Virus genome (UHGV): UHGV-1369770
Length of the DNA: 38,283 bases
From: a virus
Reading direction: 5' to 3' (one strand)
The translations under genes and the position numbers were made by a program. This document shows positions 4,905 through 38,283 of this stretch, piece after piece. Numbering within the stretch: the stretch's first letter is position 1; each line of letters begins with the position of its first letter. A model generated the notes under the pieces. It was not told where the DNA came from. It searched no databases and saw only the letters and a list, made by a program, of their open reading frames with translations.

Positions 4905-5615
4905 CTACGCTATGTCGTTTAAGTCTAAACTCATTTGTCTTACAACTGTTTTTGTTGCTGTGGACGGCTCCCAGTCATTGATATATTCAATTACGATTGG
5001 ATAATGTTTTTCTCTTAATTGTGATCGGGTCCCCACGCCTGTAATTTGCTTAATACCTGAATTAATATCTTTGTATAACTTTCCACGCTGTTCCTTTGTG
5101 ATTTTCCCAAATCCTCTTGCTACTTCTGCTACTCGTTGATGAACTCGACGTGATAAGTAGCCATAATCATCTGCACCGATTTTTTGATTGTCTTTTAAGT
5201 CGGCTACTTCTTTTTCAATTACATCTACACGCTCATTTGTTTCTTCATTTGCTGATAAAGCAAGCATCGCCAATTGTCTTTGCGAGGTTGGAAGTTTAGG
5301 CTGTTGAATTTCTTTTTCCATTTGATTAAAAGCTTCAATATATTTCAATTTAAATTGCAAAGCTTTTTGACCAGTGAACCCCATTGCTAACAAAGTGAAG
5401 CCGTCGCGATTCATAATAACTTGGCGATAAGATTGTTTGTTTTGTGGATGAATGTAGGTATCTTCGTAAAATAGGTCGGCATAATTTTGTGCCACCCCCT
5501 CTTTTAATTCATCAATGGCTTTTAGAACAACTTTGTGTTCTTTTCCGAAAGTTTCTGCAACTTGTAAACTACTTGTTACTGCTTGCTGGTTTTTCATAAT
5601 TACTAAATTTGTCAT
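4905..5615 (-). CDS. phage antirepressor / regulatory protein (Rha-like N-domain plus ORF6C-like C-domain)
   Basis: N-terminal segment MKNQQAVTSSLQVAETFGKEHKVVLKAIDEL matches the Rha/pRha pattern. The C-terminal segment KIGADDYGYLSRRVHQRV... matches the ORF6C domain. AAGGAAG SD. Confidence 0.75.
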   Translation of the reverse strand: MTNLVIMKNQQAVTSSLQVAETFGKEHKVVLKAIDELKEGVAQNYADLFYEDTYIHPQNKQSYRQVIMNRDGFTLLAMGFTGQKALQFKLKYIEAFNQMEKEIQQPKLPTSQRQLAMLALSANEETNERVDVIEKEVADLKDNQKIGADDYGYLSRRVHQRVAEVARGFGKITKEQRGKLYKDINSGIKQITGVGTRSQLREKHYPIVIEYINDWEPSTATKTVVRQMSLDLNDIA

Positions 5616-5668
5616 TTGGTTTACTTCCTTTCTGGTATAATTATTTTGAAAGCGTGGTGAAAAATATT

Positions 5669-5887
5669 ATGTTTACTTATATTTGTAACAAACAAGCAGA
5701 CGAAAAGGGGTTACACGAAGTGCATGTTTCAACATGTAAATACCTACCATCTACAGAACGACAATTGGTAGTGGGCGAATATTCTTCTTGCCATGCAGCT
5801 ATTCAGTCGCTTGAAGAAGCCAACGCTGGCAGAGGGTTTAAGTTCGATGGTTGTTATTATTGTTGTAAACCTTGTCATCACGGTTAG
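5669..5887 (+). CDS. small Cys/His-rich protein (72 aa) on the opposite strand with its own promoter
   Basis: ATG at 5669 preceded by GGTGA 8 nt upstream and an extended -10 (TGGTATAAT) at 5632-5640. The protein ends ...GCYYCCKPCHHG. Confidence 0.4.
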   Translation: MFTYICNKQADEKGLHEVHVSTCKYLPSTERQLVVGEYSSCHAAIQSLEEANAGRGFKFDGCYYCCKPCHHG

Positions 5888-6881: not shown

Positions 6882-7073
6882 TTACACCTCCTGTTTTGTT
6901 TCTAATTTAATATCAAGAAGCTCTTCAATTTGTTTTAAACGTTCAACTGGCTTACGATTTTCTAATAAAATATCTTGAAGATATGCCATCGAAATATCCA
7001 TTTGACGTGCCAGTTCTCGTTGACTCCAATCTTTATCAATCAGAGCGTGTGCGACTTGTTTCTTTAGTGACAT
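6882..7073 (-). CDS. cro: Cro-like HTH (XRE-family) repressor
   Basis: 63 aa with HTH (WSQRELARQMDISMAYLQDI). Divergent from the cI-like gene. GGAGGG SD. Confidence 0.7.
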   Translation of the reverse strand: MSLKKQVAHALIDKDWSQRELARQMDISMAYLQDILLENRKPVERLKQIEELLDIKLETKQEV

Positions 7074-7345: not shown

Positions 7346-7354
7346 TTGATAATA

Positions 7355-7789
7355 ATGGGTTTAGTACAAAGAATAAAATTGTTATCTGATGAAAAAAAGA
7401 TGTCGTTTGCTGAGTTAGAACGAAAACTAGGTTTTGCCAATAGCTCAATCAGAAAATGGGATGAACGGACTCCAGGTATCGATAAGATTCAAAAAGTAGC
7501 CGATTATTTCGATGTGTCGACAGACTATCTTCTAGGGCGTACCGAAAAACGTCGTTATTATGATTTAACAGAGAAGGACGAACGTGATATACAAAAAGAA
7601 TTAGAAAAAATTATTGAAGACATGGGTAATTCAGAATCTATCGCTTTCTCAAAAGACACAGAAGAACTATCTCCAGAAGCACGCGCTGCTATTATTTCTT
7701 CTATAGAGGAATCTTTACGTATTGGCAAAGCTCTTGCGAAGAAAAAGTTCACTCCGAAAAAATATCGTGATGATTCCACGGTAGATTAG
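7355..7789 (+). CDS. cI-like lysogeny repressor (XRE HTH, no S24 peptidase domain; ImmR-type)
   Basis: HTH at N-terminus (MSFAELERKLGFANSSIRKWD). No Ser/Lys autopeptidase domain. Followed by an ImmA-type protease gene. ATG at 7355 with GAAAGG SD. Confidence 0.75.
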   Translation: MGLVQRIKLLSDEKKMSFAELERKLGFANSSIRKWDERTPGIDKIQKVADYFDVSTDYLLGRTEKRRYYDLTEKDERDIQKELEKIIEDMGNSESIAFSKDTEELSPEARAAIISSIEESLRIGKALAKKKFTPKKYRDDSTVD

Positions 7790-7802: not shown

Positions 7803-8231
7803 ATGCTTTTATCTGATGTACCCTATGCTATTGAAGAATTAAAACAGAAATATGGAACCAATGATCCGTTTGAAATAGCCGAGAAAAAAGGAATCATTAT
7901 TCTCTATGGCTATTTTGGGAATGAAGTGTATGGGTTTTATAATAAATTCCGTAGACAAAAGTTTATTCATTTAGATGCTGAATTAGATGATAATGAACAA
8001 AATTTTGTCTGCGGCCATGAGTTATTTCATGCTGTCTTTCATCCAGATGAAAACACGGCAAAAATGACAGCAAACAGTTTTTGCTCGACTTCAAAAATAG
8101 AAGCACAAGCAAATTGTGGTTCTACTTATCTTCGAATTGATGGCACCCATATGAATGAGTTGTATATTCCGACTAAACAAGACATACTAAACTTTTATGG
8201 TCTCCCTCCAGAAATGGAAAGGTACTTATAA
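7803..8231 (+). CDS. ImmA/IrrE-family zinc metallopeptidase (anti-repressor protease)
   Basis: HEXXH motif (CGHELFHAV). 142 aa. Directly downstream of the HTH repressor. AGGAGGTG SD. Confidence 0.75.
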   Translation: MLLSDVPYAIEELKQKYGTNDPFEIAEKKGIIILYGYFGNEVYGFYNKFRRQKFIHLDAELDDNEQNFVCGHELFHAVFHPDENTAKMTANSFCSTSKIEAQANCGSTYLRIDGTHMNELYIPTKQDILNFYGLPPEMERYL

Positions 8232-8277
8232 TTTTTTGAATGTAGACGAACATGAGTTTTTGAAAGGGGTTTTATAC

Positions 8278-9423
8278 ATGGCAATGATAAAACAGTATCA
8301 AAAGAAAAACGGGGAGAAAGCATGGTATTTTAAGACGTACCTTGGAATTGATCCATTAACTGGAAAAAAGAGGTATACAACTAAGAGAGGTTTTCGAACG
8401 CAGAAAGAGGCAAAAATTGCCCTTGCGAGACTAGAAGTTCTAGCTACAGATAAAGAGTTATTGAAAGAGACTAGTTATACTTTTGCGCAGGTAAAAGATA
8501 TGTGGATGGAACAATACAAGCCTACGGTAAGAGAAAGCACCTATTTACGTGTTAAGTTTTTATTTGATAAAAACATTTCAGTTTATTTCGGAAATAAAAA
8601 AATCCAAAGCTATAACATAGCTTACTGCCAAGAAACTATTAATAAATGGAAAGAGCAATATTCTACCTACAAAGCTTTAAAGAGTTATACATCTGCAGTT
8701 TTTGATTATGCGAAAAAGATGAAGCTTATTAAAGATAATCCCATGAAAGAAGTGACTTTTTCAAAAGGTGATCGAAAACGTAAAAAAGATAAAATAAAGT
8801 ACTTCGAAAAAGAAGAATTACAAAATTTTCTTAAATGCTGCCAAAAAGACAAATTTCCTTTAACTTATCCTTTATTCAGGATTCTAGCTTTTACTGGAAT
8901 GCGAAAAGGAGAAGCTTTAGCTTTAACTTGGGACGATGTGGATTTTTTTAATAAAACGATTGAGATTAATAAAACAGTCGTAAGAAATTCAGATAATAAA
9001 TTAGTCACCACGCCCCCTAAAACAGATACATCTAACCGAAAAATTTCACTGGATGATGAAACGCTTAATACTTTGAGGGATTGGCAAACTCAACAAAAAA
9101 GATATTTACTTATACATGGTCAACATGTTAAAACAAAGGAACAAATAATTTTTTCTTCTAAAAATAATAACTACATCGATATAACCCGACCAAATACCGT
9201 TTTGTCTCGGATCTGTAAAGAATATGATTTTAACGACATTACAATACACGGATTTCGGCATACACATTGTAGTTTATTATTTGAAGCTGGCTTATCTGTC
9301 AAAGAAGTACAGGAAAGACTAGGACATTCAGATATTCACACAACAATGAATATTTACACACATGTAACTAAAAAACAAAAAGAAAGGTCTGCCGATAAAT
9401 TTGCAGCCTATTTAAATTTTTGA
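8278..9423 (+). CDS. int: tyrosine integrase (phage integrase family with N-terminal arm-type DNA-binding domain)
   Basis: N-terminus MAMIKQYQKKNGEKAWYFKTYLGIDPLTGKKRYTTKRGF is the AP2-like arm-binding domain. C-terminal catalytic box HGFRHTHCSLL....LGHSDIHTTMNIYTHV carries the conserved R..HxxR..Y residues. The likely start is ATG 8278 with an AAAGGGG SD; the ORF track starts at 8197. Confidence 0.9.
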   Translation: MAMIKQYQKKNGEKAWYFKTYLGIDPLTGKKRYTTKRGFRTQKEAKIALARLEVLATDKELLKETSYTFAQVKDMWMEQYKPTVRESTYLRVKFLFDKNISVYFGNKKIQSYNIAYCQETINKWKEQYSTYKALKSYTSAVFDYAKKMKLIKDNPMKEVTFSKGDRKRKKDKIKYFEKEELQNFLKCCQKDKFPLTYPLFRILAFTGMRKGEALALTWDDVDFFNKTIEINKTVVRNSDNKLVTTPPKTDTSNRKISLDDETLNTLRDWQTQQKRYLLIHGQHVKTKEQIIFSSKNNNYIDITRPNTVLSRICKEYDFNDITIHGFRHTHCSLLFEAGLSVKEVQERLGHSDIHTTMNIYTHVTKKQKERSADKFAAYLNF

Positions 9424-9655: not shown

Positions 9656-9731
9656 TAAAATAATACTTTTCTTTATAAAATCTTTATTAAGTGATAGAAT
9701 TAACTTAAATTAATAAGCAGGAGTGTATGTA

Positions 9732-10280
9732 ATGGATTGGAAAAAAATAGGTAAAAAAGCTTTCGACATTAGTAAACAGGCAACTGAAAAAGGTACGAAT
9801 TCATTCCAAGATTGGAGAAATGACCCTGAACGAATTGAGCAAAATAGATTGAAAAAAGAGTTAAAAAACTATACCCCTATAGAAAGTGATAACATTTTAT
9901 TTAATGAATTAACTAACCAATGGAATTTCAAGAAAGATAAAAAAAGTATCTACTCAAAAGATGATTTGCTCGCTTTTGAATATGTAGAAAACGACATTAG
10001 TATAACTAAAGGAGGAGCTTCGCTAGGAAGAGCTGCATTGGGTGGAGCTTTACTTGGAGGCGCTGGTGCAGTTTTAGGAGGGCTTTCTGGTAAAAAAAAG
10101 ACAAAAGAAAAAGTTAAGGGTATGAAAACCGTCGTCACTTTTAAGGTTAAAAATAAAGTTAAGACCGAGACTATTTACTACTCTACAGGATCAATTGATA
10201 AATCCAGTTTTGCTTATCAAGGATTCTTAGAAAAAGCACAAAACGATTTAGCTCTCTTAAATCTTATTTCTGATAATTAA
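9732..10280 (+). CDS. moron: glycine-zipper membrane protein (about 182 aa), candidate superinfection-exclusion or lysogenic-conversion factor
   Basis: Own promoter: TTTATA, 17 nt spacer, TAGAAT at about 9670-9699. AGGAG SD 8 nt before ATG 9732. Central GGASLGRAALGGALLGGAGAVLGGLSG glycine zipper. Own terminator. Sits between int and the att tRNA. Confidence 0.5.
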   Translation: MDWKKIGKKAFDISKQATEKGTNSFQDWRNDPERIEQNRLKKELKNYTPIESDNILFNELTNQWNFKKDKKSIYSKDDLLAFEYVENDISITKGGASLGRAALGGALLGGAGAVLGGLSGKKKTKEKVKGMKTVVTFKVKNKVKTETIYYSTGSIDKSSFAYQGFLEKAQNDLALLNLISDN

Positions 10281-10324: not shown

Positions 10325-10398
10325 TGGACCATACAGGACTCGAACCTGTGACCTAACCGTTATGAGCGGTTGGCTTTAACCAACTGAGCTAATGGTCC
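10325..10398 (-). tRNA. tRNA-Met (anticodon CAT), 74 nt, no encoded CCA
   Basis: Folded by eye: acceptor GGACCAT/ATGGTCC, D arm GCTC..AAGC, anticodon stem AACCG/CGGTT with loop CTCATAA, T arm ACAGG TTCGAGT CCTGT. The 3' end faces the integrase, as in the 3'-end tRNA insertion pattern. Confidence 0.85.
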
Positions 10399-23296: not shown

Positions 23297-23377
23297 TTAT
23301 TCTCCTTTCTCCATTTCAATGATTACCCCAGTTTTAGTCGGAGTCATTTTACCGATTACTGGGGTTATACTTTTGGG
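23297..23377 (-). other. candidate -1 programmed ribosomal frameshift cassette at the 3' end of the major tail gene (slippery C CCA AAA, 6-nt spacer, hairpin; 24-codon -1 extension)
   Basis: mRNA: ...ATC ACC CCA AAA GTA TAA CCCCAGU[25 nt]ACUGGGG... The -1 frame reads SITPVIGKMTPTKTGVIIEMEKGE and stops 2 nt before the next ATG. Confidence 0.55.
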
Positions 23378-23844
23378 GTGATATTAGGTAAGGTATCAAA
23401 GGTAATCGTGCAGCTGAAATCTTCATACTCTGTCGCATCTCCTGCACCAGCGACAATATCTGTTACTGTTGCACGCCCTACATAAGTATCGCCATTCGTC
23501 ATAATAATTTTATGCCAAATCTTACGATTTTCTCCAATTTTGTATTTTTTACTTGCAATTAATTTTTGTGCGGGATCTTCTGGGTCATAAAATCCTTCAG
23601 GACTATAAGCACCAGAAACAGAAGTCACTGTAGTTTCTGGTGTACCATCGCCATCATAGAAACCTGCATCGTCCGTTTCTTCATCGGTATCATCGCCAAT
23701 TGAACTAATGTACTTGGCAAGACGTTTCCACTCTAACTCGGTAGTTGGTGCTGTTTCTTTCCCAGGTACATACTCAGCAATAAAATGCTGCCGTTTTGCA
23801 TTTTTGTTCCGTGCAAACAATTGAATATTCATTTTTAATAACAT
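23365..23844 (-). CDS. major tail protein (zero-frame product)
   Basis: 159 aa at the canonical position upstream of the chaperones. It ends ...NITPKV. Confidence 0.7.
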   Translation of the reverse strand: MLLKMNIQLFARNKNAKRQHFIAEYVPGKETAPTTELEWKRLAKYISSIGDDTDEETDDAGFYDGDGTPETTVTSVSGAYSPEGFYDPEDPAQKLIASKKYKIGENRKIWHKIIMTNGDTYVGRATVTDIVAGAGDATEYEDFSCTITFDTLPNITPKV

Positions 23845-25321: not shown

Positions 25322-25350
25322 AAAAAAAGAAGGAGACTAAGCTCCTTCTT
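25322..25350 (-). terminator. rho-independent terminator after the major capsid gene (attenuator)
   Basis: Minus strand: AAGAAGGAG CUUAGU CUCCUUCUU followed by UUUUUUU. Immediately before the connector gene SD. Confidence 0.65.
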
Positions 25351-25417
25351 CCATTTCAATAACTACCCCGCTTGTTGTCGGCGTTAGTTTACCAACTTTC
25401 GGGGCTACACTTTTGGG
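25337..25417 (-). other. candidate -1 PRF cassette at the 3' end of the major capsid gene (same heptamer C CCA AAA, 6-nt spacer, hairpin CCCCG...CGGGG; 24-codon extension)
   Basis: mRNA: ...GTT GCC CCA AAA GTG TAG CCCCG... The -1 frame reads SVAPKVGKLTPTTSGVVIEMEEGA, homologous to the tail extension. Confidence 0.55.
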
Positions 25418-26271
25418 GCAACACCTTTAATAATCGCTTTAGCATTTTTTTCAGGGATATATTTGCCATACTTACCTGCCGCTTGTAACGCTGTGCCTGC
25501 GAAATCTTCTGAATCCATAGCACGTGCTACTTGAATACCTACGCCAGCTACACCTACGTTATCAGCTGAAAAAATTGCTACCTCATTTGGTTGAAATTTT
25601 TCATCTGGTAACTCTTCTAAAACAAACCCTTTAAATTTGTATAAAGTTTGTTCATCAACATTAGCGGATGAATTTTTAGAAGTTGTTGCAAGTTTTGAAT
25701 CAATTAATAAGTCGTAAACGTCTGAATTAACATAGGCAACCCATGCAACGTTTTGAGAAACATTGTTATTAACAAATTTCTTATGAGCATTAGAAAATAG
25801 TTTTGTAATACCAGCTTCATCTAATGTAGTGGTTAGTTCTTCACTTGCATTGTCAGATAATGCTTTGCCTAACAAGTTATCCACATGTTGCGCCCAGGCA
25901 ACAGCATGCAAAGCTAAGCGCTCTGCTACAACTTGATCAGGAATATCATTTACAGTAAACTGATCGACACCTTCATGAATTGAAAGTGGCGCTTCATATT
26001 TAACTTGTTTATTGACTGATTTAACTTCTTTACGTTTACCAAAACGGCTTGAGCTGCCTGTCCCTGTTCCAAATCCTACATTTTCATCTGTCGAATATGC
26101 TTGAATAACAACGTCCGTATCTGTAACTTTCAAATCTAGAAATGTATCGTTTTGAGAGACTCCGTCTTTTGTCTGTAAAGTACCTCCGAAAGCACGTAAA
26201 AATACTGCTTTTTTAGCAAACAGTTCTGGCAAAATACCTGCATATTGTTTAGTGTAATATTTGATTGACAT
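25405..26271 (-). CDS. major capsid protein
   Basis: 288 aa after the scaffold gene. It ends ...KGVAPKV. Confidence 0.8.
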   Translation of the reverse strand: MSIKYYTKQYAGILPELFAKKAVFLRAFGGTLQTKDGVSQNDTFLDLKVTDTDVVIQAYSTDENVGFGTGTGSSSRFGKRKEVKSVNKQVKYEAPLSIHEGVDQFTVNDIPDQVVAERLALHAVAWAQHVDNLLGKALSDNASEELTTTLDEAGITKLFSNAHKKFVNNNVSQNVAWVAYVNSDVYDLLIDSKLATTSKNSSANVDEQTLYKFKGFVLEELPDEKFQPNEVAIFSADNVGVAGVGIQVARAMDSEDFAGTALQAAGKYGKYIPEKNAKAIIKGVAPKV

Positions 26272-32296: not shown

Positions 32297-32468
32297 AAAG
32301 ATTTATATTAGACTGCCTAGCCAATCTAACACTTATTTAACAATACTAGGTTGCTAGCCACTTTATCCTGTTTCCGCAGGCTGGCTAATTCTGAAAGGAG
32401 GTGAACCGATCGTTAAAGTAAGAAACATTTATTGACGATTTTTTTATTTAAGTAGCTATGCTACCTAT

Positions 32469-32540
32469 TGGCGTGACAGGATTCGAACCCGCATCTTATC
32501 TCACACGAAGTAAGTTGCATTACCACAATGCTACACGCCA
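32469..32540 (-). ncRNA. tRNA-like element (possible degenerate tRNA-Arg, UCG anticodon)
   Basis: Minus strand: TGGCGTG TA GCAT TGTGGTA ATGC ... GCGGG TTCGAAT CCTGT CACGCCA. Perfect 7-bp acceptor stem, D arm with GG, canonical T loop. The anticodon arm is weak (4 bp plus mismatch, loop CTTCGTG) and the T stem has two G.U pairs. Confidence 0.4.
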
Positions 32541-33117
32541 AACCAGAAGGAGCGACCTTCTAGCAATTGCTAATAAATCAAATTAACCTTTACACACTCT
32601 CGTCAGAATGTTTTCCCTTCAGGACGTAGCTTTCGCAGACTTTCACGGCTAAAATGATTATGTCACTGGCAAGGATTTGCACCTTGTATGGTCTATATTC
32701 CACCACAGTGACCAATCAATCAAACACCAGCAAAAACAATTGATTAAGTTTATCCTAAACGTACCTAGCTGCTACTCTATGAGTTTAGGAATTGCTCTCG
32801 TGCATAAGCAGCTGCCGCAGAGTTCTGGTTAGTGTCATATCTTCAGATGCTGGGCTAAAATACCGCGCCTAGCCTCGCTTACTACGCTTTACCTTGCGTA
32901 AGGTAGTTACTGCATCTCTAGTAACTATTTGTCACTTGCAAACCTGTAGAAAAAAAGAGAAGGCTCTTCACCTCCCCTCTAAGAGAACGTATCAGTTTGC
33001 GAGTGATAGTGTGATCAGTGTTAGCAACGAGATAATATTTATTTTTGATTTCCTTACACTTCTCACACTACTAATTTACCATGTGAAATAACCTCGATAG
33101 TGCACAAATAGTGCAAA
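32541..33117 (-). ncRNA. candidate large structured non-coding RNA (about 580 nt, ROOL/GOLLD-like) between the ArpU-like gene and the tRNA-like element
   Basis: No ORF of 60 aa or more on the operon strand. GC visibly elevated (about 45-50% against about 35% flanking). Many local hairpins, e.g. TAGTTACT-loop-AGTAACTA, GTCACTG...CAGTGAC, CAAGG...CCTTG, and AGAAGG tcgct CCTTCT directly abutting the tRNA-like 5' end. Confidence 0.35.
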
Positions 33118-33537
33118 TTATATATCTAAATTTAATTCTTTTGCGATTTCTTCAAAAAATATTCTTTGTAATTCGAAGGCCTTTCTTCTACTACAAAATA
33201 TTTTTCCTTGATCAATTAATCCTTGCATAGTGAATCTAGGCCGTTTTTTAAAATGAAGCTCTTGAATGATAGTGATGGTATCCTCACACGATTCACTAAG
33301 CACTTTGTCAATGATGCGTTTATTCCGTTCTAAGCTTGCTAGCCGCCTGTCTTGTTCAATCGTAATAAGTAAATTGGCAGCAGCTTCATTATTTCCGTGT
33401 GATCCTTTAATGCCACTGTTCAAATCACTTTCTCTAAATGGATAACGTAATTCTTCTTCGCGTTGCCGAATATAGTCATCGGTTTTATAATAGTCTCCTA
33501 AGATATCTTTGATATAGTTAAATGTTGATGTCCGCAA
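33118..33537 (-). CDS. late-gene transcriptional activator (ArpU/RinA-like family)
   Basis: 139 aa basic protein at the canonical position upstream of terS in Firmicute siphoviruses. Family assignment from memory. Confidence 0.5.
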   Translation of the reverse strand: MRTSTFNYIKDILGDYYKTDDYIRQREEELRYPFRESDLNSGIKGSHGNNEAAANLLITIEQDRRLASLERNKRIIDKVLSESCEDTITIIQELHFKKRPRFTMQGLIDQGKIFCSRRKAFELQRIFFEEIAKELNLDI

Positions 33538-35883: not shown

Positions 35884-36828
35884 CTAGGAAAGTTGCATCA
35901 ATGCACCAAGAATCTTTTCATCATCTTTACTCTGCAATTCATCAATGATATGCATGTATGTTTCTTGAGTAGTAGTCACGCTTGAATGACCTAGACGTTT
36001 AGCTATGCTATGAGTTGACACCCCGTCAGCGAGTAAAATACTTGCATGTGTATGTCTAAGTCCGTGCATTGTGATGACAGTGATTCCTGATTCTTTGCAT
36101 TTTCTGATCAGGTGGGAATTGTATGTTGAATTGAAAATTCGTTTATATTTGCCTGTCTTTTCATCTCGATTTACAAAAATCAATTCATCTTGAGGTAAAT
36201 TTTCAATGAGCGGTTTAAACTGACCAACTATTTGCCAATCGATGCTTATCGTTCTAACAGAACTTTTGTTTTTCGTATCCTGAAAAAACATTGTAGAATT
36301 TTTGTAGTTCAATGTTTTATTAATGCTGACGGTATTTCTGGTCCAATCAAAATCAGCTGGTGTTAACGCAATGGCTTCCGCAAAGCGCATTCCTGTTTTT
36401 GCAACCAGTAAAATGAACCAATCCATATTTATCCCTTCGCCAAGTTCTAGTGATCTCAACAGCTTTTGTAGTTCGCCTTTTTGCAGGAATTTTTTCTTTT
36501 TTGGTCTCGGCGGTATTCCTTTGATAATCGCTTTGTAGGTTGGATCACGTTTAATTAGTCCTTCGTGATACATATCTCTTACACAGCTGCCAATTTGGTG
36601 ATGAAAATCCATTGTTGTCTGCCGCTCATGTGTCAGAGCGTATTCATTAAGGATGCTTTGATAAGCCTTTCTATCTAATTTATCTATCGTTAAATCAGGG
36701 CAAATTTCAGTAAGGTGTTTGTGGGCTATATAATATTTACTAACTGAGATATCTCTAATTGCACCGACTTTGTAAGTTTCAATCCATTCTAAAAAATAGC
36801 CAGCAAAAAGTCTGGGACGTTTGCTCAT
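35884..36828 (-). CDS. tyrosine site-specific recombinase (second, 314 aa) embedded in the early operon
   Basis: C-terminal catalytic region HGLRHTHASILLADGVSTHSIAKRLGHSSVTTTQETYMHI carries the R..HxxR..Y pattern. An earlier box (ARTGMRFAEAIALTPADFD) supplies the first Arg. No arm-binding N-domain. Overlaps the upstream gene by 4 nt. Confidence 0.85.
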   Translation of the reverse strand: MSKRPRLFAGYFLEWIETYKVGAIRDISVSKYYIAHKHLTEICPDLTIDKLDRKAYQSILNEYALTHERQTTMDFHHQIGSCVRDMYHEGLIKRDPTYKAIIKGIPPRPKKKKFLQKGELQKLLRSLELGEGINMDWFILLVAKTGMRFAEAIALTPADFDWTRNTVSINKTLNYKNSTMFFQDTKNKSSVRTISIDWQIVGQFKPLIENLPQDELIFVNRDEKTGKYKRIFNSTYNSHLIRKCKESGITVITMHGLRHTHASILLADGVSTHSIAKRLGHSSVTTTQETYMHIIDELQSKDDEKILGALMQLS

Positions 36829-37517
36829 TCGTTTTCTCCTCCTAACACGCTGGGACTTTCGATGTGATCAATAGCTTCTTCCAGCCATTCTCTGACTTGA
36901 AACTCTCTTGTGACCACATCGCTGTGCGGCATAACATTTACATCGCTAAAAGCCAACGAATCATCTTTTGAATTTTGTAAAAAGTAAATCTGTTTTATTT
37001 TTCTGTCTAGCGAATCACCGTGGACTACGGTGGCATTCATCCCACGAATAGCAAGATTGAACAGCAGGAACGGAATGGTTCTATCAGATAACTCCTCTAA
37101 ATCGTAAAAAGTCATTGATGGTTTATATTCAAAAAAACCAATAGATAGTCTGTCTGCTCGCCATTTTTGTATGATCATTCCACCTGTCCCAGAAGCTACT
37201 TCATGTGTCAACCCACTTCCAGGCCCTACGATTTTTGCAATCACTTCCCCAATTGAATTTGGCGTAAAATCTTGCTTCTTAACTTTCCGATCAGCATGTT
37301 CGTCTTGAAAATATTCGTGAAACCAATCGAAAGTTAAATCTTTTTCTATTTCTAAAAATTTGTTAAACACGATTTCTCGTTTATCGCGACTTAGTAATAT
37401 ATTCATGAGCGCTTCTGGCGCTTTGTAGGCATCATCAACATCTAGCAATTCATTTATTTTTTCTGTTGTTAGTTTCATCGTTTTTAAAGGAGCAAAAAGC
37501 TTTTTATGCGGCCGCAA
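36825..37517 (-). CDS. N6-adenine DNA methyltransferase-like protein, N-terminal half only (HsdM/gamma-class motifs X, I, II-III present; no NPPY/F catalytic motif)
   Basis: DFTPNSIGEVIAKIVGP (motif X), EVASGTGGMII (motif I), LLFNLAIRGMNATVVHGDSL (HsdM-like ...mN..lhG....GDsL). The ORF ends 60 aa later with no (D/N)PP(Y/F). Confidence 0.45.
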   Translation of the reverse strand: MRPHKKLFAPLKTMKLTTEKINELLDVDDAYKAPEALMNILLSRDKREIVFNKFLEIEKDLTFDWFHEYFQDEHADRKVKKQDFTPNSIGEVIAKIVGPGSGLTHEVASGTGGMIIQKWRADRLSIGFFEYKPSMTFYDLEELSDRTIPFLLFNLAIRGMNATVVHGDSLDRKIKQIYFLQNSKDDSLAFSDVNVMPHSDVVTREFQVREWLEEAIDHIESPSVLGGENE

Positions 37518-37534
37518 ACTCCACTCCTTTCTAT

Positions 37535-38275
37535 TTATTTTTTCTCTAGAACCTTTTTAAATATGTCATCCACTAATTTTTCTGGAATATTTGATCGTTC
37601 ATTATAGCTTTTGGAAAAATTCCCCCAAGCAATTTCTTGTTTAATAACTTTATTTTTCAATCCCAAATGGATATTACTAGCAAATTTCGTGGGCTTCTGT
37701 AATGGATAATCATAATTGTTATACCTGGTTAAATTTTTAAATGGCAGTTTAAAATTCAAGACATCTTCGATATATTCCCAAATTTTGCCACTAGCGGGGT
37801 TCTCAATGATGAAATATTTTGGTTGGTACTTTTTTATAATTTTTATAGTATTAAAAACCGTTAACTCTCCATTCACTCTTTTTAAAAATTGCCTTTCATA
37901 AACATAATTAGTATCTTCGTAATCTATTGTGGTTCTTATAGTAAACGGGCTTGGTAATATCTGTGGTGCAAATAAATTATCTGTTACATCTTCTCTTTTC
38001 CAACAAGCATTACCATTTTTCATTGCACTAGCTACTGACCAGCTTTCACATGGTGGGCTTGCAATGATTAAATCTGGCTTTGGTAATTTGTCTAAAACTT
38101 TGAATAATTTATTATCATTAAACATATAAGAATAGTCCGCTAAATTCAGATGAATAAAATGGTCATTCTTATTTTCAATATCCAAACCTATGCTGTATAT
38201 TTCTATATCTTCAAACTTTTGTGCAGAACGCTTATAACATCCGTTCCCACTATCAAATAGTGCCCATACTATCAT
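37535..38275 (-). CDS. C5-cytosine DNA methyltransferase-like protein, atypically short (246 aa; motifs I, IV, VI present, degenerate motif VIII, no obvious target-recognition domain)
   Basis: LFDSGNG (motif I-like), DLIIASPPCESWSVAS (motif IV PC dipeptide), PKYFIIENPASG (motif VI ENx), YDYPLQKPTKF against the canonical QxRxR. Confidence 0.4.
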   Translation of the reverse strand: MIVWALFDSGNGCYKRSAQKFEDIEIYSIGLDIENKNDHFIHLNLADYSYMFNDNKLFKVLDKLPKPDLIIASPPCESWSVASAMKNGNACWKREDVTDNLFAPQILPSPFTIRTTIDYEDTNYVYERQFLKRVNGELTVFNTIKIIKKYQPKYFIIENPASGKIWEYIEDVLNFKLPFKNLTRYNNYDYPLQKPTKFASNIHLGLKNKVIKQEIAWGNFSKSYNERSNIPEKLVDDIFKKVLEKK

Positions 38276-38283
38276 AATTTCAA

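Follow-up and report, generated by a model that had tools for sequence, protein, structure and literature searches.

UHGV-1369770 is a virus genome of 38,283 nucleotides (nt), and this whole stretch is termed the window below. On its minus strand are an arm-less tyrosine recombinase gene, an open reading frame (ORF) related to one half of HsdM of Type I restriction-modification (R-M) systems, and a gene for a protein with multiple helix-turn-helix (HTH) motifs. These three genes are termed the trio. An ORF similar to C5-cytosine methyltransferases (MTases) precedes them. The four co-oriented genes are as follows.

37535-38275, minus strand: C5-cytosine-MTase-like gene, 246 amino acids (aa), phrog_2882; an optional cassette that is outside of the conserved module
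36825-37517, minus strand: HsdM-derived half-methyltransferase (half-MTase), 230 aa from a TTG codon or 217 aa from Met14, phrog_1071
35884-36828, minus strand: arm-less tyrosine recombinase, 314 aa, PF00589
35299-35871, minus strand: multi-HTH protein, 190 aa, phrog_323 ("transcriptional regulator, D5-like"), 12 nt downstream of the recombinase gene

The window is the complete, circularly permuted genome of a temperate Enterococcus faecalis siphovirus and its megablast matches are E. faecalis phages. Joining base 38283 to base 1 reproduces the sequence of sibling prophages in 204 of 204 aligned columns, and the junction aligns unbroken to three of these prophages (comparison loci L014, L020 and L024). 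The two ends are therefore contiguous and the genome is complete, thus no MTase partner is hidden beyond the window. The original prediction had considered that a complete partner with an NPPY motif or a target recognition domain (TRD) might be encoded just outside; what is found upstream of the C5-like gene is a 68 aa ORF (45-251), a 95 aa ORF and the gene for the single-stranded DNA-binding protein. Neither hsdS nor hsdR is present in the complete phage genome.

The recombinase sequence displays a PF00589 match (E-value = 1e-24) and a weak core-binding domain of the type that Pfam names SAM-like. No arm-binding domain such as that of the lambda-type integrases is detected in it. Residues R148, K186, H255, R258, H281 and Y291 form the catalytic hexad of the tyrosine recombinase superfamily. 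The stop codon of the 230 aa ORF overlaps the recombinase ATG as ATGA at 36825-36828, and the earlier description of a 314 aa tyrosine recombinase that lacks an arm domain and is ATGA-coupled agrees with the coordinates, the Pfam result and the overlap. Models from NCBIfam score well below their cut-offs: 71.8 against 220 for XerA, 44.1 against 329.6 for XerD and 24.7 against 222 for the tyrosine-type invertase. The same is the case with the integron-integrase models TIGR02249 (IntI), 48.8 against 265, and NF011946, 38.5 against 435. PADLOC shows no match to either the recombinase or the HTH protein.

Relatives of the recombinase were surveyed in one genome per bacterial species. There are 66 bacterial loci with a recombinase that is 50%-56% identical over its full length, and these span Firmicutes, Negativicutes, Bifidobacterium, Coriobacteriia, Pasteurellaceae, Moraxella and Mycoplasma. 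In most of the 66 the recombinase gene is located 1-3 kb from hsdM, hsdS or hsdR. A neighbour-joining tree displays a clean split between a phage clade, found in half-MTase, HTH and C5 contexts, and an R-M clade, found in HsdM, HsdS and HsdR contexts. The mean identity within the two clades is 0.74 and 0.68, and it falls to 0.51 when the clades are compared with each other. HsdM, HsdS or HsdR is encoded within 4 kb of the recombinase in 47 of 59 R-M-clade loci, the remainder being mostly short contigs. Analysis of two of these loci (L094 and L099) with Pfam shows the order hsdM-hsdS-recombinase-hsdS′(inverted)-hsdR, which is the architecture of the phase-variable Type I R-M "inverton". All 26 phage-clade sequences have the catalytic hexad unchanged, and in 52 R-M-clade sequences there is one exception each at H281 and Y291. 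Across both clades 58 alignment columns are invariant, 24 of them in the N-terminal core-binding domain.

By this phylogeny the recombinase is a phage sister clade to the hsdS invertases of the EfiA/PsrA type. It looks active as judged from its sequence, being catalytically intact and having kept a DNA-binding domain. It is thus close kin to recombinases encoded between hsdS genes; its location, however, is not inside a Type I R-M locus with two or more inverted hsdS genes, as no phage-clade locus contains hsdS or hsdR. PsrA of Streptococcus pneumoniae catalyses hsdS inversion in vitro (PMC7096588). Invertons, each with an integrase, have been reported in 24 of 34 E. faecalis and 60 of 123 Listeria monocytogenes REBASE strains (Atack et al., PMC7394358). 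The two inverton-bearing species are also host species of phages that carry the trio.

In the R-M loci an inverted motif, TGGGAACAGCGTAAGTT, flanks the recombinase gene, and the 15-mer TGGGAACAGYGTAAG is present in inverted orientation in 37 of these loci. This 15-mer is the experimentally mapped inversion site IR2 of the E. faecalis inverton, in which efiA has a length of 930 bp (Huang et al., PMC7672463). The IR2 repeat is given as TGGGAACAGTGTAAG, and the inversion repeats of the hsdS-invertase loci are TGGGAACAGYGTAAG and CATCAGCGTAAGTT. The window does not contain TGGGAACAGYGTAAG even when three mismatches are allowed, and a shorter inverton core has one match at two mismatches where 2.3 are expected by chance. 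The 15-mer is likewise absent from all of the prophage and viral loci examined, about 170.

Other types of sites were also sought in the phage. A direct and inverted repeat search over the entire 38 kb genome, the check that had been proposed for finding recombinase sites, gave no significant long repeats and no candidate site. No inverted 11-mer flanking the recombinase is common to three or more of ten phage lineages, whereas the identical procedure recovers the inverton motif in eight of ten R-M loci. The 11-12-mers common to at least five phage lineages are A-rich coding words and do not represent a conserved single site. The 13-mers shared with Listeria phages are noise only, and the gene junctions inspected show no candidate.

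The 230 aa ORF matches PF02384 (N6_Mtase) only at model positions 9-120 of 311 and has a PADLOC match to a Type I MTase (E-value = 1e-10). The motif NPPY/F is found nowhere in it. The first reading of this ORF, as the N-terminal half of an HsdM-like MTase that ends before NPPY/F, is thus borne out. It is nevertheless of full length within its own family: residues 14-224 align with positions 1-210 of 223 of phrog_1071 (E-value = 1e-99). The family has 1316 homologues at E-values of 1e-5 or less, and the best 120 are all 198-245 aa in length. An unbiased HMMER scan of 1.8 billion cluster representatives gave lengths of mostly 210-280 aa for relatives whose match runs on into the C-terminal tail; those of 400-600 aa match query residues ~14-195 only, i.e. 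up to motif III. Relatives of 340-390 aa have an extra region in which no Pfam domain is found.

An alignment of 42 half-MTase sequences displays the invariant elements QDFTP, the AAGTGG core with G110 and G112, E141/E142 (EE..D..PFL.FN), H166-G167-D168, Y..QN and N..P. Motifs X, I, II and III, with which gamma-class MTases bind S-adenosylmethionine (SAM), are all present. The position of motif IV is occupied by a conserved QN(D)xDD, and this is followed in the tail by conserved FS..N(V/I)(M/L)P and W...E. The protein ends about 50 aa past motif III, with a family-specific C-terminus of ~55 aa replacing the catalytic half, and the complete seven-stranded MTase fold is not formed. There is no match to PF12161 (HsdM_N), unlike the bacterial HsdM of L094 and L099, and the C-terminal helices that bind HsdS are absent. 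An AlphaFold2 (AF2) model (mean predicted local distance difference test score, pLDDT, 84.6) consists of a four-helix N-domain, the Rossmann strands beta1-beta3 and two additional strands, and Type I HsdM subunits are its best matches in the PDB.

By these alignments the half-MTase is a stable family with a predicted SAM-binding function and is not a truncation. The absence of motif IV rules it out as an adenine MTase of a known kind. The proposal that the MTase-like ORFs are incomplete or decayed does not agree with these data, since both ORFs (for the 246 aa protein, see below) are full-length members of large conserved families in which the SAM-binding or catalytic residues are invariant.

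Several observations relate to other occurrences of this family. In three E. faecalis prophages (L022, L023 and L024) homology to the half-MTase ends at residue 145 and no recombinase gene follows, which is a recombination breakpoint inside of the gene. In Lactococcus phage phi15 the 220 aa "hypothetical protein" Phi15_35 (L004:5187-5849), encoded directly downstream of M.Phi15I, is a member of the half-MTase family. M.Phi15I is the replication-module MTase of 936 phages to which CC(6mA)G has been assigned (Murphy et al. 2014, PMC4190342). It was considered as an experimental parallel for the half-MTase and rejected, as it is a 300 aa DPPY enzyme of a different family.

The multi-HTH protein matches phrog_323 (E-value = 9e-31) and has a weak similarity to Sigma70_r4_2. 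The original prediction missed both this downstream gene and the kinship to phase-variable Type I R-M loci. The HTH gene adjoins the phage-clade recombinase gene in Listeria phages B025 (gp44) and B054 (gp65) and in E. faecalis prophages. Phage B025 has the same trio in the same order (gp42-gp43-gp44), with a recombinase that is 59% identical. Among 80 viral loci centred on the half-MTase, all those of E. faecalis and Listeria prophages show half-MTase, recombinase and HTH genes in order, and those of Streptococcus and Lactococcus show the half-MTase alone. Of the 39 viral loci centred on the recombinase, 37 include an adjoining HsdM-like gene, and the HTH gene is adjacent in 35. Thus the arrangement, which had been regarded as non-standard for its genomic position, is the norm there in many Enterococcus and Listeria prophages.

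At least four gene orders of the trio are seen among Enterococcus and Listeria phages. In L186 and L187 the order is HTH, full-length HsdM, recombinase. In Listeria ilorinensis (L140:3359-10081) the order is HTH-like, recombinase, and a half-MTase with a third type of C-terminus. The trio of L140 is located between a family-A DNA polymerase and a VapE-like primase/helicase, which is a different mobile-element backbone. In L026 and L045 the place of the half-MTase is taken by a 424 aa HsdM-like enzyme with NPPY (L026:5001-6275) that covers the whole N6_Mtase model. The first ~105 residues of this enzyme are nearly identical to the half-MTase of the window. There is no hsdS nearby, and the enzyme presumably needs the HsdS of the host. 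The full-length phage HsdM has a PADLOC Type I MTase match with an E-value of 2e-94 and is 36%-65% identical to the HsdM proteins of the R-M-clade loci. Adjacency that survives rearrangement of the gene order is good evidence for a functional module.

A reversed gene order seemed to be present in Listeria phage vB_LmoS_P9 (L154, MZ361825.1). This was rejected, as the record appears to consist of coding sequences joined artificially head to tail with no intergenic DNA, which makes its gene order unreliable. Its sister record, MZ361826.1, bears the name "Hydrogenophilus phage" but is a Listeria phage in sequence.

The 246 aa protein has a full-length match to phrog_2882 (E-value = 6e-128) and a weak one to PF00145. 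It carries FDSGNG (motif I), PPCE (motif IV), IENP (motif VI) and QKPTK (motif VIII). A total of 738 homologues are found, and 119 of the best 120 are 247-275 aa in length with 67%-83% identity across genera. Invariant residues in this family are F7, G10, G12, P74-P75-C76-E77, E158-N159-P160, K194 and T196, and these include the catalytic residues Cys76 (PCE) and Glu158 (ENP). In the AF2 model (pLDDT 75.9) residues 78-113 are disordered, and the best PDB folds are M.HaeIII (E-value = 2e-5) and DNMT3A/B. Thus motifs I, IV and VI are present on a C5-MTase fold; the QxRxR form of motif VIII and a TRD are not, and only ~30 aa separate QKPTK from the C-terminal, motif-X-like NIP helix. The early description of a C5-like core with PCE, ENP and QKPTK and with no room for a TRD is accurate. 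The protein is probably a compact orphan C5-cytosine MTase that would be active in self-protection.

In sibling E. faecalis prophages the C5-like gene is present, absent, or swapped for a variant of 26% identity, and the genes downstream are unchanged. The gene is therefore an independent optional cassette unrelated to the trio, and the two MTase-like genes do not form a pair as had been suggested. The cassette is bracketed by two copies of a ~55 nt leader, an imperfect direct repeat.

1-52, continuing across the junction to 38276-38283, minus strand: leader copy 1, upstream of the C5-like gene
37476-37534, minus strand: leader copy 2, upstream of the half-MTase gene

The leader motif GGAGTGGAGNTTTG has exactly two occurrences in the genome, and prophages without the C5-like gene have one leader copy. 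The boundaries of cassette presence, loss and exchange are exactly at the leaders; we propose that the cassette comes and goes between sibling phages by recombination of the leader hairpin copies. Leader copy 2 contains a 12 bp stem that sequesters the ribosome binding site, the inner palindromes GCGGCCGC and AAAAAGCTTTTT, and a mini-ORF of 13 codons. The predicted folding energies are -14.4 kcal/mol for copy 2 and -17 kcal/mol (z-score -2.3) for copy 1, and the consensus helix has 12 pairs, one of which is compensatory (U-A/C-G). There are three leader variants in sibling phages and their inner palindromes co-vary, i.e. GCGGCCGC/GGTCGACC/GTGGCCAC and AAAAAGCTTTTT/AAAGAATTCTTT. A search of Rfam with the leader gave nothing over threshold. 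The leader is confined to this E. faecalis phage group and is not present in Listeria and other phages that have the same recombinase clade.

The 13-codon mini-ORF is in frame with the half-MTase in the window; in sibling phages it is a separate upstream ORF that ends in an ATGA overlap. The family-wide start of the half-MTase is Met14, with its ATG at 37476-37478. The discrepancy between the 230 aa and 217 aa lengths is thus due to the leader mini-ORF happening to be in frame.

Pneumophage SpSL1 has adjacent "C5" and "N6" MTase genes; 5-methylcytosine but no N6-methyladenine was detected, and cds15 methylates RCGRC (PMC6755750). The pair cds15/cds16 was considered as experimental support and dropped, as these genes are not homologues of the window ORFs. 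A separate 180 aa "phage integrase family" ORF of the same phage (SpSL1_27, L152:8402-8944) is located just upstream of the packaging genes; this is a different, truncated recombinase-like gene at a late-regulator position.

The remainder of the genome is that of a temperate phage with its own integrase, and its principal features are as follows.

~7000 down to 1, minus strand: replication genes
6882-7073: Cro-like gene, lysogeny module
7346-7789: cI, lysogeny module
7803-8231: ImmA, lysogeny module
8197-9423: arm-type integrase of lysogeny, Arm-DNA-bind_4 present
~32100 down to ~10400: late region

A tRNA-Arg(TCG) gene at 32467-32541 is located between an ArpU/DUF722-like late regulator (33118-33537) and the small terminase gene, and a tRNA-Met(CAT) gene at 10325-10398 lies between a moron on the integrase side (9723-10280) and the lysis end. 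A 77 nt direct repeat, 77% identical, is present in the head/tail gene block at 23302-23378 and 25342-25418, 2 kb apart, and may mark similar ends of two structural genes. On the plus strand, opposite to the early operon, a 92 aa Cys-rich ORF with CxxC-type motifs (5609-5887) adjoins an antirepressor-like gene.

Comparison with known systems shows both likenesses and differences. The phage recombinase resembles the inverton invertases EfiA of E. faecalis and PsrA/CreX/IvrR of S. pneumoniae in size (~305-319 aa), arm-less build, catalytic hexad and N-terminal core-binding domain. It differs in that its gene is in an early operon, has no flanking hsdS and no repeats of the TGGGAACAGYGTAAG/IR1 type, and belongs to a separate clade. 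In addition, inverton R-M loci have no multi-HTH gene, whereas the phage-clade recombinase is beside one. The Cre/loxP system of P1 and Xer/dif are likewise based on arm-less tyrosine recombinases of ~300 aa on a mobile element; here however there is no candidate site, Xer scores are far under cut-off, and the phage integrates and is not a plasmid. With HsdM the half-MTase shares motifs X, I, II and III and the SAM-binding half of the fold, and its best structural matches are HsdM subunits. It differs from HsdM by having no HsdM_N, no motif IV, no strands beyond roughly beta-4/5 and no HsdS-binding helices, and by its own conserved tail of ~55 aa.

The DNA mimics Ocr and ArdA, the SAM lyase of T3 and Ral of lambda are phage counter-measures against Type I restriction. 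They have the same early context and the same presumed SAM-dependent Type I target as the phage module. By analogy, it is conceivable that the half-MTase acts by a Ral-like re-tuning of HsdM or by SAM depletion. There is however no sequence or fold kinship to any of these proteins, and none of them uses a recombinase or a subunit-derived fragment. The 246 aa protein can be compared with orphan phage C5 MTases such as SpSL1 cds15 (PMC6755750) and with the compact DNMT3 domains. These have the same fold, Cys (PCE) and Glu (ENP), and the orphan phage MTases are also encoded in an early/replication module. The differences are that the 246 aa protein lacks a separate TRD, has QKPTK for QxRxR, and contains a conserved but poorly modelled loop (78-113) after motif IV; beyond the motifs it is not homologous to cds15.

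As read from sequence, the trio looks like a stripped-down phage copy of a host Type I inverton that has kept an HsdM-derived SAM-binding protein and an intact invertase-like recombinase, has lost hsdS, hsdR and the cis sites and has gained a multi-HTH partner. The only known substrates of this recombinase family lie in the host chromosome, and action in trans is thus the most economical hypothesis. Our tentative reading, to which we give a probability of roughly 0.45, is that the trio may be a phage-borne inverton derivative that acts in trans on the host Type I system as a counter-defence. Expression of the trio would start early in the lytic cycle, and the recombinase would use the inverted repeats of host hsdS genes as its sites, so that the specificity of the infected cell would be scrambled or diversified. 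The role of the HsdM-derived protein would be to disturb or re-tune the Type I complex of the host, whether by serving as a subunit decoy or by binding SAM. The full-length HsdM of sibling phages would make use of HsdS from the host and in this way methylate the phage DNA beforehand. The phage would thus escape a restriction barrier that works by bet-hedging. A more far-reaching form of this scheme appears doubtful. In that form the phage invertase would flip host hsdS in trans during lytic growth while the HsdM-derived protein blocks restriction or boosts modification, or, in siblings, while the full HsdM works with HsdS of the host; the progeny DNA would then carry the methylation of several host phase variants, and the bet-hedging of the population would be defeated.

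A number of points weigh against a counter-defence acting in trans. Recognition of host hsdS repeats by the phage recombinase is a prediction. The comparison with EfiA rests on Enterococcus species other than E. faecalis. With the clades ~51% identical and 13 positions discriminating between the phage and R-M recombinases, the specificity of the recombinase may have diverged. It is not obvious how a flipping of hsdS in the course of a single lytic cycle would protect the incoming DNA at once. The half-MTase is also common in Streptococcus and Lactococcus phages, including virulent 936 phages, that have no recombinase; B054 and L193 have recombinase and HTH genes but no MTase-like gene; and the HTH family is found alone in phage EJ-1. 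As the half-MTase, the HTH gene and the recombinase-HTH combination occur apart, the three genes may have separable functions. Finally, the absence of the C-terminal HsdS-binding helices makes a simple decoy that sequesters HsdS unlikely. The original suggestion of MTase-fragment decoys or partners of the recombinase is retained for the half-MTase as a possible decoy or partner.

Another explanation, unlikely in our estimate, is that the trio is not one machine. The half-MTase would be a stand-alone anti-restriction or SAM-binding factor, e.g. lowering SAM for SAM-dependent Type I or BREX defences or poisoning HsdM assemblies, and the recombinase and HTH pair would be unrelated to it, with the adjacency a result of shared ancestry in a captured R-M fragment. 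The half-MTase does occur alone in more than 100 Lactococcus and Streptococcus phage records, with small unrelated ORFs as its flanks, and its SAM-contacting motifs are all invariant while motif IV is replaced; the loci of B054 and L193, which lack it, fit this explanation as well. However, the adjacency of HsdM-like and recombinase genes outlasts changes of gene order and the exchange of half for full-length forms in several phage lineages, and the HsdM-like neighbour is kept in 37 of the 39 recombinase-bearing phage loci. Arm-less recombinases of this size typically use simple core sites, as do Cre and Xer. It could therefore be supposed that the enzyme acts on the DNA of the phage itself, resolving dimers or concatemers or inverting a segment, with the HTH protein as an accessory factor; its intact catalytic residues and its place in an early/replication operon would suit such a role. 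This is quite unlikely in view of the 38 kb genome with no significant long inverted or direct repeats, the flanking 11-mer comparison that recovered the motif in R-M loci and none in at least three of the ten phage lineages, the shared 11-12-mers that are A-rich coding words, the recombinase gene that has no adjoining intergenic space, and the NCBIfam Xer and invertase scores that are far under cut-off. Dimer resolution for a plasmid prophage, which was among the original proposals, also fits poorly with a phage that integrates by its own Int and lysogeny module and with ten phage lineages that share no conserved cis site.

Full-length NPPY variants with the same neighbours, a linked HTH gene and no hsdS could be taken to indicate an orphan modification system complete in itself, with the multi-HTH protein in place of HsdS as the DNA-targeting subunit and the half-size versions as regulatory or inactive derivatives. 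The C-terminal region of the full-length variant is nevertheless 53%-65% identical to the HsdM of hsdS-containing loci, and its retention argues for continued use of HsdS. Since the half-MTase of the window also lacks motif IV and the recombinase would be given no role, this explanation is improbable. The bracketing of the C5 cassette by two structured leaders of ~55 nt, with gain, loss and exchange exactly there, would suit a cassette recombinase of the integron kind, for which the leader repeats would be the sites of insertion and excision of MTase cassettes. We consider this very improbable: phages outside of the E. faecalis group, such as those of Listeria, have the same recombinase clade and no leader, the repeats are long enough for homologous recombination, and TIGR02249 and NF011946 are far from their cut-offs. 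A last explanation, that these are decayed and functionless remnants of a captured modification locus, takes its support from the missing NPPY in one protein and from the missing QxRxR arginines and obvious TRD in the other. It is effectively refuted by the family data, which show that both families are large and uniform in length, that many of their residues are invariant, and that they extend over several genera and over virulent and temperate phages alike; the ORFs are also intact and translationally coupled.

A full-text search of the literature gave no description of phage relatives of hsdS invertases or of HsdM-derived half proteins as a module, although such absence is no proof of novelty, and no phage counter-measure aimed at Type I switching itself. 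Phase-variable Type I R-M is regarded as a bet-hedging defence and an epigenetic switch in E. faecalis, L. monocytogenes and S. pneumoniae, and a module built from two non-specificity parts of the inverton locus is a concrete and testable candidate for acting upon it. Independently of this, the ~220 aa half-MTase family is routinely labelled "DNA methyltransferase" or "N-6 DNA methylase" in hundreds of dairy, streptococcal, listerial and enterococcal phages. As the half-MTase has no catalytic half, these annotations and the methylation motifs inferred from them are probably wrong.

Many Type I loci with multiple hsdS genes have no invertase of their own (PMC7672463). A corollary of a trans-acting phage invertase is that prophages could supply the enzyme to such loci, which would explain inversions there. 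If the proposed reading is true, prophage carriage would influence switching of the host methylome and hence virulence phenotypes, and the trio would represent a new class of anti-restriction strategy.

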